This document shows positions 1-7,366 of a stretch of 7,366 bases of DNA, one piece after another. Position 1 is the first letter of the stretch. Each line of letters starts with the position of its first letter. The notes beneath the pieces were generated by a model. That model had not been told where the DNA came from. It ran no database searches and worked only from the letters and a program-made list of their open reading frames with translations. The DNA comes from a virus (Duplodnaviria; Heunggongvirae; Uroviricota; Caudoviricetes). A program made the position numbers and the translations under genes. The DNA lies in the IMG/VR virus record IMGVR_UViG_2531839665_000009; one strand, given 5' to 3'.

Positions 1-90
1 TGCCGGACCAGCATCACCTGCCGGTCCCCGTTCGCCGGTTGCCCCGACAGGGCCGGTGTCACCGCGCTCTCCCTTATCACCCTTCGGCCC
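1..90 (-). pseudogene. stf: Continuation of the side tail fiber (stf) collagen-like region in a frame shifted by 1 nt relative to the upstream stf ORF; partial, runs off the window start
   Basis: Minus-strand codons starting at nt 90 translate to [30 protein letters not shown], an uninterrupted Gly-X-Y repeat with no stop through nt 1. The upstream stf ORF ends in the same repeat type ([19 protein letters not shown]) and then hits TGA-TAA at 79-74. Whether this is a true pseudogene, a sequencing error or a slippage site cannot be decided from sequence alone. Confidence 0.55.
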
Positions 91-886
91 CTGAGGACCC
101 GCGGGCCCCTGTTCCCCCCTTTGGCCCGGGAGGTCCCACCACGGTGGGGATTCGGTTTACGGCCTCTTCCGCCGCTATCCTGCTTTGTTCCGCTGACTGT
201 GCGCTTTCTGCTGACTCCCGGGCTTTTTCTGTTGCGGTCGTTGCATCCCTGGCTGCATTACCGGCTGCACTTTCTGCCGTCTTTCTTGACAATTCAGCTT
301 CTGCTGCACTTTGTGATGACTCACTGGCTTTTTGAGCGGCCGCAGAAGCCGAGGACGAGGACGCATCCTCTGACTGCTTTGCTGAGGCTGCACTTTCTGC
401 CGCCTGCCGGGCTGACTCCGATGCCTCCCCTGCTGAAGTGTCAGCATTTGCAGCGCTCTCTTCTGCCTGACTGGCTGATATGCCGGCATTCCTCGCTGAC
501 GTCTCCGCCTCTCCGGCATTCTTCTTCGCCTCCTCAGCGTGACGCGCCACCTCTTCCACCATCAGTTCAAAACGGCGCAGTGCCTCCGGCCGGACGTCAT
601 CCTCCGACATGGCACCGAGAAAATCATTCAGCGTCCCCGGTTGAGAATCTTCATACACGGTGATGGTCCCGGCATGTGACGGCGGGAATCCTTCCACCAA
701 CAGAATGACGCTGTACTGACCGTACTCAACGTCCATGCTGTAACGACCGGCTTCATCCGGATTTTCAGAGGCCACCGTGTTCACCACCACCGTGCTGCTG
801 GTCCGTCTGGCTTTCAGTTGAATGGTACAGTTCTCTACCGGTTTTCCTGTGCCGTCTTTCAGTACACCTGAAATCTTTACTGCCAT
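77..886 (-). CDS. stf: Side tail fiber protein Stf, N-terminal portion (269 aa from the ATG at 886..884; the ORF track extends to a GTG at 892)
   Basis: N-terminus [17 protein letters not shown]...[15 protein letters not shown]...[24 protein letters not shown] matches lambda Stf as I recall it almost residue for residue. It is followed by an Ala/Ser/Glu-rich low-complexity segment and a collagen-like Gly-X-Y tail. A GGGGTG Shine-Dalgarno-like motif lies upstream of the ATG. Terminates at TGA 79..77. Confidence 0.85.
130..520 (-). repeat. Low-complexity Ala/Ser/Glu/Gln-rich coding region inside stf (approximate bounds)
   Basis: Translation is dominated by short reiterated motifs ([27 protein letters not shown]), typical of the fibrous shaft of side tail fibers. 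Bounds were judged by eye. Confidence 0.5.
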
Positions 887-895
887 ATTCACCCC

Positions 896-924
896 ACAAA
901 AAAGCCCGCCTGAACCGGCGGGCT
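896..924 (-). terminator. Rho-independent terminator downstream of lom (minus strand)
   Basis: 8-bp GC-rich stem (plus 903-910 agcccgcc pairs with 917-924 ggcgggct, loop tgaacc) followed on the minus strand by a T-run (plus A-run 898-903). Lies between the lom stop (951) and the stf start (886). Confidence 0.7.
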
Positions 925-950
925 GTCATAACACTGTGTTACCTGGCTAA

Positions 951-1574
951 TCAGAATTTATAGCCGATACCCACGATGAAGCCGTCAGTGCGCCAGTCGC
1001 CACTGGCGGAACCTTCATAAGCAAGGTCAATAACCACCGTCTCTACGGGACTGAACTGAATCCCGGCATTCCAGGCCGGCGACAGATGACGCGCAGTATG
1101 GCCATCACTGGCGGTGGTGGTCTCCTTCACATACCCCGGTTTCACTTCATCACGCCGGTAATCCTGAACACTGTCAGACCAGCGGGTGTACGCCATCCCG
1201 GCCATGCCATAGAGACTGACCCGCTCACTGAGCTGCCAGACAGGGCCGGCCATCAGACTGACATAACGACCGCGCAGGCTTTCATAATGGAAGGTATTTT
1301 CACCCGTCTTCATCGTGTCACTTTTCTTCACCGATGCATAACTCAGCGCGACAATGCCGCCCAGGTGATCCGTGAACTCATAACGGTATTTCACATTAAT
1401 CCCTTTTAAATCACCTGCACGCGCACCGGTACCGGACAATGCCGGTACGCCGCCCGGGTGAACCTGAGCATATCCCACGGAAAATGCACCGTGTCCGCTT
1501 TCAGCCTGTGCAGGAAAGGCAATTCCTGCCAGCAGGGTAGTAAACAATAATATCGTTGCGTATAAATGCCGCAT
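951..1574 (-). CDS. lom: Lom outer-membrane protein (Ail/Lom/OmpX beta-barrel family), 207 aa
   Basis: Translation from the ATG at 1574..1572 (MRHLYATILLFTTLLAGIAFPAQAESGHG...KGINVKYRYE...GDWRTDGFIVGIGYKF) closely matches lambda Lom as I recall it, including the signal peptide and the C-terminal aromatic barrel-closing residue. GAGG Shine-Dalgarno 5 nt upstream of the ATG. The ORF track started at an upstream TTG (1598); I prefer the ATG. Confidence 0.9.
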   Translation of the reverse strand: MRHLYATILLFTTLLAGIAFPAQAESGHGAFSVGYAQVHPGGVPALSGTGARAGDLKGINVKYRYEFTDHLGGIVALSYASVKKSDTMKTGENTFHYESLRGRYVSLMAGPVWQLSERVSLYGMAGMAYTRWSDSVQDYRRDEVKPGYVKETTTASDGHTARHLSPAWNAGIQFSPVETVVIDLAYEGSASGDWRTDGFIVGIGYKF

Positions 1575-1579
1575 GATTA

Positions 1580-1586
1580 CCTCTTT
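1580..1586 (-). promoter_or_regulatory. Ribosome-binding site for lom (AAAGAGG)
   Basis: Minus-strand sequence aaagaggtaatcATG; GAGG core with a 5-nt spacer to the start codon. Confidence 0.6.
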
Positions 1587-1596
1587 GTTTTCAGTC

Positions 1597-1622
1597 AATA
1601 AAAAGGCACCTCCTGAGGTGCC
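1597..1622 (-). terminator. Rho-independent terminator downstream of J (tJ-like, minus strand)
   Basis: Palindrome ggcacctc..gaggtgcc (plus 1605-1622) followed on the minus strand by TTTTTATT (plus A-run 1597-1604). Lies between the J stop (1642) and the lom start (1574). Confidence 0.75.
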
Positions 1623-1641
1623 CGTCCGGGTTAATAAACCG

Positions 1642-4600
1642 TCAGCTGATACTGATCCCTGCCGTGGATTTTTTCATGACCACAACCAGTAAATCACTGA
1701 TGTACGTTGTCGGCGTCCAGTTGTTCGCACCGGCCGACGACACATTAAACGTCAGGGTGACATGACCCCGCCCTGCCGGCATATCTATCACCGATGAGAA
1801 CACCCGGCTGACATCCGTTGCCGGTTCATGGAAAATCTCAACCCCGTTCTTCAGCACCTGCAGCTTACAGGTGGAATACCAGTACGACTGCTGATTCGGG
1901 CTGTTGAAATTCTGGTGTTTCGTCCCGCGAAACAGCACCGGGGGAATGATGATCTGCCGGTCGAAGCCCTGGTCATCGTAAACTGTGACGGTTACCGTCC
2001 CGCTGGCATAACTGTTATTCCGGGGAAAGGCTTTCCCCACCGTCTTCACCAGGTCGCCTTCAATCTGGTTTGCAGACAGTTTCCCTCTGATGACACAGTT
2101 CTCGTTAATGGTGACATTATTGAGCGTGCCGGTATTCGCGGTAATTGCTCCGCTGATATCCGCGTTCCTGGCTGTCAGCTTCCCTTCCGGCGTCAGGGAA
2201 AACGTCGGGGGGTTGCCGGATGACGTGATACTCGCCGCAAACAGACGCTTCAGGAACACGTCGTTCATGAACAGCTGATTCCCCTGCGCCACAAATAACG
2301 GAGTGCTGTTGCCGCTCTCCGGATTTATCATCGCGATACGGTCAGCCAGCAGCAGTATGTTGCTCAGTGGCTGGCCATCAGTATCCTCAATCCCCGCTCC
2401 AATACCGGCCACATAGGGAATGCCGTCTTTCGTTTTTTGAACCTTCAGCATGTACAGCGCAGCCAGGTCATCATTTGTGTCCTTCTGCACGCGCTGTATC
2501 TGCTGAATGGTGGCGCTCTGGTCTTCCAGCGTTTTACTGACCGTCTGTGTGATTTCATTGCGGGTTTCGGTGATGGTGGTCTTCATCTCCGCCATCTCAT
2601 CCGCAAGCTGGCTGTTGTCTATCAGCTCCCATAGCCCCTGAGCCAGATGCAGTTTTCCTATTTTTTCCCGAAACAGCCCCAGATACCCTTCTGCATCATT
2701 GCTGGCCCGGCCACTGGCTTCCACAAAAGCAGATTTCCCCACCAGGTTGACGCTGCGCACGTAAAACCAGAAATCCTTCCCGGGCTTAATGTGCGGGCCG
2801 GATACACTCCACTGACTGCCGGTCCCCAGATAACGGGCAGAGGTTTCCACCTGAGATGTGTCTGCGATTTTTGTCTCCGAAAACCAGAACTCAAACTGTA
2901 CCGTCGGGTCATACACCGCAAGACGCGGGACCGCTGTTATCTGAAAATAGCCCGGTGTCAGCTCAATCGTGGCGGGTACCGCAGGTGCATTAATCCTGAA
3001 CGTGGTGGTGGCCGGTTCCCCCTGCTGGCCATAACTGTTAATCGCCCTGACCGTCAGGGTGTATTCCCCCGGCGGCAGACCGCTGAAACGGTGCTCTGTA
3101 TCCGCGGTGATGGCGGTGGTCACCAGACGGCTGTCCTCACCGCTTCCACTGGTCAGGCGCAGACTGAAGCGCACGCCCTTCACCACCCGCGGCGTGTCCC
3201 ATTTCGCCTGCGCCAGATACTGACCGTCAGCTGCGCTCACCTCCACCGTCAGGTGCTGCACTGCCGGAGGGATGACGCTGTTCAGGGTGCCTGACTGCGG
3301 CTCAAAGCTGGCCCCGTTATCCACGATGGCTTCCTTTTCCGGTACGTGCTGCACCGCCGTGATGGCAAAGGTGCCGTCCGTGTTTTCCCGGATGGAGACA
3401 CAGCGGAACAGGCGACGACGCAGTGACGGCAGGGAGAGTCCCCATACACCGTATGTCTCCACACCATCAGGCAGGGTGCTGACCTGTATCCGGTCCGGCG
3501 CGGGGTGTGCAGTGATGGCCACGCTCACCGGCTTACCGCTGCCGTTAATCAGGTTCACCGTGGCGGCACCTGTCTCCGGCAGGGTCACCTCACGGTCCAG
3601 TGTCAGGGTGCGGCTGGCGGCATCGATGGACAGGATACGTCCGCCGGTCATGGTCCCGGCATAGTCGTTATCACAGATTTCAATAATGTCACCGGGTGTG
3701 TGACGCAGCCCCTGTGACCCGAGCGTGAAATCCACCGTCTGCGTTTCCAGCAGTCCGGTCTTTATCACCCACAGCCCGGCACGGTGGGCCTGACCGCGAC
3801 TGGTGCAACCGAACGCATCCATCTTCAGCAGGTTGCGCCCGTAGCGCAGTATGGCTTCCGGGTCTTCCACCAGTTCCGTGGAGGTCTGCCAGCCGTTCTG
3901 CGGGTCGGTGTAATTCACCTCCACCGCCGTGTGGCGGTCCTTCAGGGCGCTGAAGCTGTAGCGAAACCCCACGCCGTTATCATCCACCACCACATCGCAG
4001 TTGGTGTACGGCCACACCACATCCGACGGGCGGTCCTGAACGAACGTCAGCGTCTGGCCGTTCCATACCGGCATACAGCGCATCGCCGAGCAGAAATCAC
4101 TGAGAACGTCCCACGCCTTACGCTGTTGTGACAGGTACGCATTAAAGGTCATCCGCGGCTCTGTGCCCCCGAAACCATCCGGGACCGTCTGGTCGCAGTA
4201 CTGCGCAATGGCATACAGCGCCCATTTGTCCACGTCTGCCGCCCCCAGACGTTTTCCCATGCCGTAGCGCGGGTGAGTCAGCATGTCCCACAGGCACCAG
4301 GCCGGGTTGTTGCTGTATGCCGGTTTCAGGCTGCCGTCCCAGATGCCGCTGTACGTGCGTTTTTCCGGGTCATAGTTTGACGGCACCTGGATGATGCGAC
4401 CGCGGATATGGTAGTTCACCGTCATCTGCTGACCGCCAAACTGCTCCGCATCCACCTGCAGCCCCACAATCGCCGTGTTCGGGTAGCACTGTTTCACATC
4501 GATGATTTCGGTGTATGACGACCAGAGCGTCTTATTCTGCAGCTGGTCCGAGGTGCTGTCCGCTGTCTCCCGGACCATCCGGATGTTAAAAGGACGGGGA

Positions 4601-5118
4601 GGCAGATTACCCAGAATCACCGACGCCAGAAACTGCGAGGTGGTCTTGCCGTTAATGGTGACATCCTTTTCCGTCACCCAGTTACCGTTACGCTGTAACT
4701 GAATCAGCAGGCGGACGGATGTCGGGTTTCGGTCACCCTTTGACGTGGTCTGCACCAGTGACTGCACCCCGAAGGTGACCCGCAGGCGGTCAATGTTCGC
4801 GGATGTAATGGTGCGCGTCACCGGCTTTGCCTTCGTCACTTCCACGCCCAGTGCGGTTTCCGCCCCGGATGACTCAAAACCTTCCGGCGGTGTCTGCTCC
4901 TGCTCCCCGGCGCGCCAGACCGCTGTCACACCATGTATCACAGGATTACCGTCCGTGTCCGTCAGCGGGGTTTTGTTCACCAGAATACTCTGCAGCCCCT
5001 TCACCGGACCTTCCACCGGTCCCTCACCGATGGCATCAATCACGCTCATCATCTGCGTGGACTTAAGATTGTCCTTTGCCTCAACCGGCGTGTGCGCCCT
5101 GCCGCCACCTTTACCCAC
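1642..5118 (-). CDS. J: Tail tip / host specificity protein J (central tail fiber), 1158 aa, GTG start
   Basis: N-terminus [39 protein letters not shown] and long stretches throughout ([39 protein letters not shown]; [24 protein letters not shown]; [24 protein letters not shown]; VIDMPAGRG) match lambda gpJ (1132 aa) as I recall it. Single uninterrupted ORF. AGGAGAGGGGGA Shine-Dalgarno region upstream of the GTG. Confidence 0.95.
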
Positions 5119-5122
5119 TCTG

Positions 5123-5134
5123 TCCCCCTCTCCT
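5123..5134 (-). promoter_or_regulatory. Ribosome-binding site for J (AGGAGAGGGGGA)
   Basis: Purine-rich Shine-Dalgarno-like tract on the minus strand immediately upstream of the J GTG start at 5118..5116. Confidence 0.55.
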
Positions 5135-5162
5135 GTCTGATGTCTGAATCTGTTTATGCCCC

Positions 5163-5190
5163 AAAAACGACAGGCACCCCGGAGGGTGCC
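5163..5190 (-). terminator. Hairpin with downstream T-run on the minus strand (weak terminator-like element) in the I-J spacer
   Basis: 7-bp GC stem ggcaccc / gggtgcc (plus 5173-5179 and 5184-5190, loop cgga). On the minus strand it is followed after a 5-nt spacer by TTTTT (plus A-run 5163-5167). The spacer is longer than in canonical intrinsic terminators. Confidence 0.3.
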
Positions 5191-5327
5191 CGTGTCATGA
5201 CGGAATAAAATTTCTGAATTTCTTCACATTTTCTGTACGCCCCCGTGGCAGATATCATTCCCGGGCGTTACAGTTTTTTCGGGCCAATAAAAACAAAACT
5301 CCCTGTGGTTAATCTTCATTTTCTGTT

Positions 5328-5358
5328 CCCGCAGCCTTCGGTCACTGCGGGATTTTTT
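5328..5358 (+). terminator. Plus-strand intrinsic-terminator-like hairpin immediately 3' of the I stop codon (antisense to the late operon)
   Basis: 7-bp stem cccgcag / ctgcggg (5328-5334 and 5345-5351) with an inner C(UUCG)G-type tetraloop motif (ccttcggtca), followed on the plus strand by A-TTTTTT (5353-5358). No T-run follows it on the minus strand, so it is oriented for plus-strand transcripts only. Confidence 0.45.
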
Positions 5359-5363
5359 CGCTT

Positions 5364-6044
5364 TTATGCCTGCCGCCCGATAACCACGACCTTTCCGCCA
5401 CCGCCTTCATCACGGGTACTGATGTCCTGGGAGATTCGCCGGGAGCCAACCAGCATTTCACCGTAAGGCACCGGCATCGGGTTCCCCTGGGCAATCATGT
5501 TATCCAGCGAGGAAAAGTACGTGTTCTGTCTGCCGTTATCCGTGCTTTTGTACTCCGGTACTTTAGCCTTCGGGGCCAGCATCTGGGCCACACCGCCCAG
5601 AATCATGCTGGCCCCCAGTGAAAACAGCATCGTGGTGGCAGAAAAACCACCGGCTGCCAGGGCTGAACCCCATAACGCCATTGATGCCCCGGCAGTGAAG
5701 AAAGAGCCCACGATGGCTGCCGCCCCCAGCACAATCTGCAGTCCACCCTTTCCGGCCCCGGCCAGTCGCGGCACAATGTGGATGACCGTTCCCTCACCCA
5801 GCTGTTCGTGAAGACGGGCGTACACCGCCTCCGGTGCCGTGTCCTCACCGCGAATACGTATCTGGTACCAGCCTTCGTTCATCTGACGGCGGAATCCCGG
5901 CATCTGCATCGACAGGGCACGGATGGCTTCCGCTGCCGTGTTCACATACAGGCTGAGGCGGCGGCCAAATCGTTGTAAATCCCCGTGAAGGCAGATACGT
6001 GCCAGTGGCGGTGACGCCAGGCTGAATGCGTTCGTCGTTGCCAT
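5364..6044 (-). CDS. I: Tail tip assembly protein I, 226 aa
   Basis: Translation (LASPPLARICLHGDLQRFGRR...VIHIVPRLAGA...LGAAAIVGSFFTAG...FSLGASMILGGVAQMLAPKA...DNGRQNTYFSSLDNMIAQGN...YGEM.VGSR.ISQ.IST.DEG) matches lambda gpI (223 aa) as I recall it. Start overlaps the K 3' end by 103 nt, the same overlap I recall for lambda K/I. Confidence 0.9.
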   Translation of the reverse strand: MATTNAFSLASPPLARICLHGDLQRFGRRLSLYVNTAAEAIRALSMQMPGFRRQMNEGWYQIRIRGEDTAPEAVYARLHEQLGEGTVIHIVPRLAGAGKGGLQIVLGAAAIVGSFFTAGASMALWGSALAAGGFSATTMLFSLGASMILGGVAQMLAPKAKVPEYKSTDNGRQNTYFSSLDNMIAQGNPMPVPYGEMLVGSRRISQDISTRDEGGGGKVVVIGRQA

Positions 6045-6685
6045 TTTTCGGAATACCTCTCCCGTTTACTCAGTTGTTCAGGCAGATGGTGAAGCAGTTC
6101 ACCGTTGCCGCAGTATATGGCGGCATGATTGGCCACCGATGCGCCAAAGCAGCACAGCAGGATATCGCCCGCCTGTGCAGAGGACAGGGGCACCCGGTAA
6201 AAGCCAGTCGCCTCCATATTGTCCAGGTACAGGTTCTGACCGTTGCGCCACCAGTCATCCTCACGCTCAAAATCCGGCATATCAATTCCCGCCAGATGGT
6301 AGGCATCCCGGAACAGCGTGTAACAGTCCGTCACCCCGTGCTCAAAGCGCCGTCCTGTCAGATGTGGCACACAGCGGAATTTATGAATTTCCCCCCGGCA
6401 GACCAGCCACCAGGACAGTGCACTTTTTATCTGCAGCCGCCGGTCGGCCTCGCTCAGCCAGGGCAGACCACCGGGATGACTGTGGACCAGTGCCACAATC
6501 TCCCCCTGCATCTCTGCCCGCAGCCAGTCTTCCGGTGCAATACGAAAATACGCCTCCGGCTCTGCAGAGATATTCACACAAGGGATATACCGCTCCCCCT
6601 CCGGCGTTCTCACCACGAAGCCGCACGACTCCGCAGGCACACACCGCCGGGCATGCACCAGAATCGCTGATTCAGTCTGTGTCAT
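5942..6685 (-). CDS. K: Tail tip assembly protein K, 247 aa (JAB/MPN N-terminal motif plus NlpC/P60-like C-terminal region)
   Basis: JAMM-type motif HSHPGGLPWLSEAD (H-x-H-x7-S-x2-D) in the N-terminal half and a downstream Cys/His pair (DCYTLFRDAY ... ANHAAIY) consistent with an NlpC/P60 fold. Position between L and I and the overlap with I match lambda K. The ATG at 6685 lies 23 nt downstream of the alternative-frame L stop; no strong Shine-Dalgarno is visible, so translational coupling is possible. Confidence 0.85.
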   Translation of the reverse strand: MTQTESAILVHARRCVPAESCGFVVRTPEGERYIPCVNISAEPEAYFRIAPEDWLRAEMQGEIVALVHSHPGGLPWLSEADRRLQIKSALSWWLVCRGEIHKFRCVPHLTGRRFEHGVTDCYTLFRDAYHLAGIDMPDFEREDDWWRNGQNLYLDNMEATGFYRVPLSSAQAGDILLCCFGASVANHAAIYCGNGELLHHLPEQLSKRERYSEKWQRRTHSAWRHRHWHVSAFTGIYNDLAAASACM

Positions 6686-6708
6686 AAACAGGATTTACTG
6701 TCGAAAGT

Positions 6709-6750
6709 TTATTGAATGGAAAGGAAACCGCCAAAATTAGCCACCACTGC
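6709..6750 (-). pseudogene. L: Out-of-frame remnant of the L C-terminus (AVVANFGGFLSIQ*)
   Basis: The frame shifted by 1 nt from the main L ORF ends ...AVVANFGGFLSIQ-TAA at 6709, which matches the lambda gpL C-terminal tail (...NVGNFGGFLSINKLSQ) as I recall it. The main L frame instead ends ...CSKCMRGCEMRGSGG at TAA 6739..6737. Confidence 0.5.
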
Positions 6751-7366
6751 CGCGCATCTCACACCCGCGCATGCACTTGCTGCATCTGTCCTTACGGATA
6801 TCGGTGGTGGGTTTATCGAACTCATCCGCCACAGCCCCGCCCGTGTAACCACACTCATCAGAGCGGTAGGTCCACATACAGGTATTCGCCAGCATAATGC
6901 GACCGGGAAACAGCGCCCCGTCCGTCTCCGTCGGTGTCGCCAGCACAAACGAGGCTGTCATGGCCGTCAGCTCTGACATCTGCTCCACCACCCAGCGGTC
7001 GCTCAGCTCCTGCTCCGGGTCCGCTTCCGGATTGCCCGCCACAAAATTCACCGCATCCAGAAAACGGGCATACACCCGGCGGCGGACCACCGTGGCCCCC
7101 ACCAGGCTCTGCAGGTCCTCCGCCATCCCGGTGACCAGACCAAACAGATTGGACACCGTCAGCGACGGGCGGGCACTGCTGCCCTTCCCGTTCATCTCAA
7201 AACCGCTGCCGTCAATCGGGTATACCTGATATTGCCGCCCCTGCCAGGTGACCGCCTCCCCTTTTTCATTCAGCTCATTGCAGAAAAAATAGCGCTCACC
7301 GCCCTGCACCGTCAGGTCAATTTCCCAGAGCACCACCCGCGGTGACTGCTCTGATTTAACCGACTC
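6737..7366 (-). CDS. L: Tail tip protein L, 5'-partial (N-terminus lies beyond the window end), with an apparent frameshift near the 3' end
   Basis: Translation VVLWEIDLT.QGGERYFFCNE.NEKGE.VTWQGRQYQ.YPI.GSGFE.NGKG...VGATVVRRRVYARFLDAVNFV.GN..ADPEQE...FPGRIMLANTC.WTYR.DECGY...CSKC matches lambda gpL as I recall it. The frame stays open through nt 7366 (ESVKSEQSPR upstream of the track's GTG at 7336). Confidence 0.9.
   Translation of the reverse strand, partial: ESVKSEQSPRVVLWEIDLTVQGGERYFFCNELNEKGEAVTWQGRQYQVYPIDGSGFEMNGKGSSARPSLTVSNLFGLVTGMAEDLQSLVGATVVRRRVYARFLDAVNFVAGNPEADPEQELSDRWVVEQMSELTAMTASFVLATPTETDGALFPGRIMLANTCMWTYRSDECGYTGGAVADEFDKPTTDIRKDRCSKCMRGCEMRGSGG

Follow-up and report, generated by a model that had tools for sequence, protein, structure and literature searches.

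Single-base indels that truncate tail gene L on a draft contig from a Shiga-toxin-producing Escherichia coli, and their probable origin in sequencing or assembly

As deposited, tail gene L of a lambdoid prophage in Escherichia coli 4.0967 stops early, and a stretch that reads like its conserved C-terminal tail lies directly downstream in another frame. A preliminary description, drawn from the DNA letters, had taken this for a frameshift that removes the tail and had left two explanations side by side: a degenerate prophage and an error-prone assembly. We asked which differences separate this L from its relatives, whether any other sequence shares them, and how they are best explained.

A prophage tail module on a short draft contig

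The window, by which we mean the whole 7,366-nt stretch of DNA analyzed here (positions 1–7366), is the entire contig AFAA02000028.1 of assembly GCA_000194495.2 (E. coli 4.0967), a 2011-era J. Craig Venter Institute (JCVI) draft of a Shiga-toxin-producing E. coli (STEC), a type of strain rich in near-identical lambdoid prophages. AFAA is given in the literature as O145:H2 strain 4.0967, Stx2-positive, from JCVI, with no platform stated (PMC3359367, Table 1 therein), and phage sequence in such drafts is described as scattered across several contigs (PMC3359367). The minus strand of the window carries a lambdoid prophage tail module in the order L-K-I-J-lom-stf, which is also the gene order of lambda (Table 1).

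The contig ends 30 nt inside L, so that the first 30 nt of the gene are absent, and at its other end within stf. Such ends are to be expected where an assembler fails to place a prophage module that is present in repeated copies. Complete E. coli genomes bearing the module have a median of two copies of a similar module and a maximum of 16, which makes the module a repeat within a draft. The reading frames of K, I, J (1,158 aa; 3.5 kb), and lom are all full-length. Exact look-ups found the K and J proteins on record from AFAA02000028.1 only; no second, independently made assembly of this prophage came up. Scanned against Rfam over its full length, the window matched no known RNA family. For gene I, the mechanically derived open reading frame has 226 aa (5364–6044, minus strand) and overlaps K by ~100 nt; the gene called in the source record and in relatives has 193 aa.

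Table 1. Genes of the contig, with the single-base differences discussed in the text
Feature	Position	Strand	Basis
Tail tip hub gene L as deposited; 5′ cut at contig end, premature TAA at 6739–6737	6737–7366	−	ORF; PF05100; JB2 alignment
Extra G, GGCA[G]TGGTGGC, outside homopolymer; frameshift after Gly216	6747	−	Alignments
Out-of-frame L C-terminal remnant, MVANFGGFLSINKLSQ, with canonical TAA at 6697–6695	6695–6746	−	JB2 comparison
One extra base, ATTC versus ATC/ATT (Ile codon) in relatives	6714–6716	−	Alignments
Extra A, TTTCG[A]CAGTAA, just ahead of canonical L stop codon	6701	−	Alignments
L-K spacer, one T missing (TTTT to TTT, run at 6686–6688)	6686–6694	−	Alignments
K, JAB/MPN and NlpC/P60 tail assembly peptidase, intact, 247 aa	5942–6685	−	ORF; domain matches
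I (PF06805), start at ATGA overlap with K stop codon	5364–5945	−	Gene call; Pfam
J, 1,158 aa, TipJ domains	1642–5118	−	ORF; domain matches
T5 run versus T6 in all relatives; private non-coding deletion	1600–1604	−	Panel alignment
lom	951–1598	−	ORF
stf, N-terminal part	77–892	−	ORF
G6 run versus G5 in all relatives; stf frameshift, stop at 79–77	114–119	−	Panel alignment

The 3′ end of L

The L fragment matched the PF05100 profile (Phage_tail_L) with E = 9.2e-87 and 290 bits (cut-off 25), and residues 11–219 of lambda gpL at 76% identity (BLASTP, E = 4e-125), in agreement with its first identification as tail gene L. The profile alignment spans positions 3–188 of 206, so the C-terminal end of the profile is missing from the deposited L, which GenBank annotates as a 199-aa protein (EII34382.1) starting from a GTG at 7336. 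Lambda gpL is the tail tip hub protein, and the ligands of its Fe-S cluster are Cys173, 182, 205, and 212; the role of this cluster and its domain is uncharacterized (PMC10721106). The lambda protein has 232 aa (PDB 8IYK, 8IYL, 8K35, 8XCG, and 9E7M; Pfam PF05100), and its C-terminus, ...CKFRNNVGNFGGFLSINKLSQ (...CSKCLSGCKFRNNVGNFGGFLSINKLSQ in PDB 8iyk_L and NC_001416), is the one given in the preliminary description.

The deposited L frame ends ...CSKCMRGCEMRGSGG with a TAA at 6739–6737 (...CEMRGSGG; minus strand), and the neighboring frame reads ...AAVVANFGGFLSIQ up to a TAA at 6711–6709. Both stops lie where they had been reported, and the frameshift cutting the conserved C-terminal tail is present in the deposited sequence. 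That tail, x-F/G/I-G-x-F-L-S-I-N-K/R-L-S(-Q), is absent from the deposited reading frame. Relative to lambda gpL, the deposited protein stops at the equivalent of residue 219, carries SGG for residues 217–219, and is without residues 220–232 (NFGGFLSINKLSQ), which are encoded downstream out of frame with two more insertions interrupting them. The net change at the protein level is the replacement of residues 217–232 (16 aa) by SGG; the earlier estimate had been about 13 residues replaced by GSGG. The cysteine cluster had been said to survive, and it does: five cysteines are retained, and the four that correspond to the lambda [4Fe-4S] ligands all align and are conserved in the window frame, upstream of the shift.

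For the base-level alignment we used the closest complete genome, JB2 (NZ_CP182203). The L DNA is 100% identical to JB2 over about 650 nt and then differs by four single-base indels inside 59 nt. Seven nucleotides downstream from the first of them, the G inserted at 6747, the frame reaches the TAA at 6739–6737. The insertion at 6714–6716 can be placed as T 6716/6715 or equivalently as C 6714; it creates a second shift and the ...SIQ stop at 6711–6709. The third insertion is the A at 6701, and the fourth indel falls beyond the L stop codon, in the L-K spacer, which has 9 nt here versus 10 nt (ATCCTGTTTT) in the closest relatives, the K ATG normally lying 10 nt past the L stop codon. The same four differences were found against prophage Sp4 of O157:H7 Sakai, six other complete genomes, and lambda, and within L all of these alleles, JB2 included, share one common length. 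The Sp4 gene (ECs_1116) is 98.2% identical to the window L at the DNA level; measured against the intact prophage L (WP_001179486.1; Sp4), the window has three extra bases in the last 50 nt and a spacer one base short. A single extra nucleotide around 6751 (within cgcGGca) had been proposed to explain the shift. The alignments replace it with four indels, three of them within L, and put the first insertion at 6747.

With all three L insertions deleted, the frame runs through to ...CEMRGMVANFGGFLSINKLSQ (...NFGGFLSINKLSQ) and a stop, and the corrected fragment of 222 residues is identical to residues 11–232 of the JB2 protein (WP_001179486.1). Removing 6747 alone gave ...FLSIQ and a stop, a product that is still truncated; removing 6747 and 6716 gave read-through to ...INKLSTVNPVYDTD before a stop, and the family C-terminus needs all three bases removed. 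Correction to a single frame, as anticipated in the preliminary description, was thus achieved in silico, at a cost of three bases and with the end ...FLSINKLSQ in place of the expected ...FLSIQ. As judged from this alignment, the likeness of the downstream frame to the L tail is not due to chance, because its DNA is base-for-base identical to intact alleles apart from the indels.

A conserved C-terminal coding sequence out of frame directly downstream is also what programmed recoding would leave, with a ribosome frameshift near 6747 yielding full-length L, and it is the only observation that speaks for such a mechanism. To yield full-length L, the ribosome would have to shift three times within 50 nt, always in one direction, and 6747 offers no slippery homopolymer. 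Moreover, all relatives encode L in one frame, and the arrangement is absent from them. On these comparisons, we consider programmed recoding effectively refuted.

Indels aside, there are zero mismatches to the JB2-type allele from about 6250 to 7366 (~1.1 kb). This identity bears on a further possibility, that a recombination or gene-conversion junction between divergent L alleles scrambled the 3′ end. The L 3′ end is polymorphic among paralogues (EMRGMVA, EMRGMAV, ELRRNVG, and KFRNNVG forms), and L-K spacers of 5 to 10 nt occur among prophage paralogues, both of which would give such a junction material to work on. However, the JB2-type allele continues on either side of the indels and at every position between them, with no haplotype switch seen; conversion would import substitutions and not pure single-base indels; and the known alleles all have the same length within L. 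A junction of this kind is very improbable.

Private differences along the contig and in public sequences

The four indels at the end of L have company elsewhere on the contig. Measured against a panel of eight complete-genome loci, its private differences came to six indels and one substitution (at 5191); besides the indel events, three window positions match no panel member. Three of the six private indels are changes in run length (G5 to G6, T6 to T5, and T4 to T3). The stf frameshift noted in the preliminary description is present and is due to the G6 run at 114–119. The T5 run directly follows a terminator-like hairpin, GGCACCTCAGGAGGTGCC (1622–1605, minus strand), downstream from J. Judging by the alignments, these two changes and the L indels belong to one class of error. 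If six indels were placed at random along 7,366 nt, the probability of four falling within 59 nt would be about 3e-5, which points to a local technical cause.

We searched for the indels in other genomes. A 141-nt query across the site at the end of L matched 6,198 places, spread over 1,873 complete E. coli genomes, and none of them (0/6,198) has any of the four L-end indels; the best identity among these places was 97.2% over 141 nt, which is exactly the four gaps. At the stf site, complete E. coli genomes gave 5,458 places, the closest of which matched at 99.3% and was one base shorter; 587 records match the 141 nt around the G6 run at 99.3%, and G6 at 114–119 occurs in no complete E. coli genome. 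At the T5 site, the 667 places in complete E. coli genomes likewise matched at 99.3% at best, here one base longer. For each of these two 141-nt stretches, records in the hundreds agree at 99.3%, the run-length base being the sole difference. Taken over the contig, the six indels are absent at all homologous places in 5,426 complete E. coli genomes.

Searches with short exact words reached beyond complete genomes. The 27- and 33-mers containing the G at 6747 had zero exact matches in GTDB species representatives, IMG/VR, and JGI metagenomes; a 23-mer over the 6716 insertion had none in IMG/VR, and a 23-mer containing the A at 6701 had none in GTDB species representatives and IMG/VR. The positive control, an intact 26-mer for the 6747 site, had at least 120 matches in IMG/VR.

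At the protein level, the truncated 199-aa L product is on record from one contig only. We examined 120 cluster representatives of L homologues, from Escherichia, Shigella, Salmonella, Citrobacter, Yersinia, and Edwardsiella, and none of them ends ...GSGG. The preliminary description had allowed for functional homologues that naturally end ...CEMRGSGG, and among these 120 there are none. The tail xFGGFLSIN(K/R)LS(Q) is found in essentially all complete homologues among the representatives, and it is nearly invariant in homologues down to about 70% identity. The comparison with lambda L and with related prophages, suggested at the outset as a check, shows the conserved tail intact and a single-frame L in the relatives.

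Other L entries have unusual forms of their own. One (P0099) is frameshifted, ends ...VRCAHGG, and lies on a 5.1-Mb contig; two (P0007 and P0008) are 314-aa forms that run into an alternative frame of K; and several have in-frame internal deletions with the C-terminal tail intact. P0116 also belongs to this aberrant set.

Origin of the indels

The frameshift is real in the deposited sequence, and from the comparisons above the gene underlying it is most likely an ordinary lambda-type L of an STEC prophage. We infer a technical cause: the L frameshift is very probably an artifact of sequencing or assembly. A local patch of consensus errors would consist of three spurious insertions (6747, 6716, and 6701) and one dropped base (6686–6688), and two further homopolymer miscalls on the contig would account for G5 to G6 in stf and T6 to T5 after J. 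What the cell carries would then most likely be an intact L, followed by K 10 nt later, whose 232-aa product has its hub domain at the N-terminus and a [4Fe-4S] domain at the C-terminus and ends ...CEMRGMVANFGGFLSINKLSQ. Such a pattern resembles indel errors in draft STEC sequences, in that indels dominate, half of them are in homopolymers, and they are private to a short draft contig with both ends inside repeated prophage genes. It differs from simple random miscalls in that the G at 6747 and the A at 6701 are outside homopolymers and in that four indels in 59 nt make a denser patch.

STEC commonly contain defective lambdoid prophages whose frameshifts are real, and this counts against an artifact. 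Strain 4.0967 could have a defective L allele in a tail module at the onset of decay, the stf frameshift being part of the same process. The deposited sequence reads so, and GenBank annotated the 199-aa product; STEC genomes are rich in lambdoid prophages, of which some are defective, and other odd L entries such as P0099 are public; and two genes, L and stf, are frameshifted on one module. Nevertheless, about 770 nt with four indels packed into 59 nt and not one substitution do not look like natural decay, which would bring substitutions as well as intermediates in relatives, and no intermediate with one to three of the indels was present among the 6,198 homologous places. Indels that lie past the stop would be neutral, yet they come without accompanying neutral substitutions. 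We prefer an artifact to natural decay because the private indels dominate over substitutions (6 to 1), half of them (three of six) are homopolymer length changes, they are clustered and unshared, and the neighboring genes (K, I, lom, and the 3.5-kb J) are intact. What would mark a genuine pseudogene was not found: no other sequence shares the indels, and there are no substitutions across 6250–7366. A decaying module in this strain is thus an unlikely explanation. The narrower claim, that the four indels at the end of L are real and define a unique allele that lacks the invariant FGGFLSINKLSQ tail and keeps the hub and the Fe-S cysteines, is quite unlikely. Of the two explanations offered at first, the privacy and clustering of the indels and the intact neighbors favor assembly error over a degenerate prophage.

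Assuming that the indels are artifacts, low-quality reads are one possible cause, and a consensus merged from reads of several paralogous prophage copies is another. Merging is suggested by the positions of two indels, since the 6716 insertion and the spacer deletion fall where paralogues differ: at 6714–6716 prophage copies commonly have either ATC or ATT, alleles that are both contained in the ATTC of the window, and the missing spacer base sits at a site that varies between T and G among paralogous alleles (CCTGTTTT, CCCGGTTT, and CCTGGTTT). A paralogue-mix consensus is plausible but unproven as the local cause. As the full mechanism, collapsed paralogues were rejected, as the insertions at 6747 and 6701 cannot be derived from known allele pairs; merging is kept as a sub-hypothesis. 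The G at 6747 and the A at 6701 lie neither in a homopolymer nor on a documented paralogue polymorphism, so that neither kind of error accounts for them, a point against an artifact.

If the indels are artifacts, short contigs of repeated prophage modules in older STEC drafts can carry dense indel errors. Errors of this kind give rise to false truncated proteins, here EII34382.1 and the shortened stf product, that find their way into protein databases as singleton variants, where they can be taken for signs of prophage decay. If they are real, the locus adds one more defective prophage gene, in which the Fe-S tail tip protein gpL is naturally cut short at its C-terminus, a form that could be used for probing the contribution of the tail to tail tip assembly, and it would be an unusual case of +1 insertions that arose in vivo in a dense cluster. 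Since homologues hardly vary in the tail that is lost, a real truncation would be likely to impair L. Translation of L would also stop 52 nt short of the K start codon, where 10 nt is normal, and this might weaken coupled translation of K.

Two minor observations concern other parts of the module. The non-coding gap between I and J (5119–5363, minus strand) is 245 nt long, versus about 60 nt in lambda, and contains a hairpin, GGCACCCTCCGGGGTGCC (5190–5173), followed by a T-run at 5167–5163; the gap shows several length polymorphisms among relatives, and the sole private substitution of the contig (5191) adjoins its hairpin. In lambda, RefSeq K has 199 aa and starts from 14276. The start context ATGACACAG, which begins the 247-aa K of E. 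coli prophages (window 6683–6697 compared with NC_001416), is kept in lambda 5 nt after the L stop, and by this comparison the annotated lambda K may begin too far downstream.
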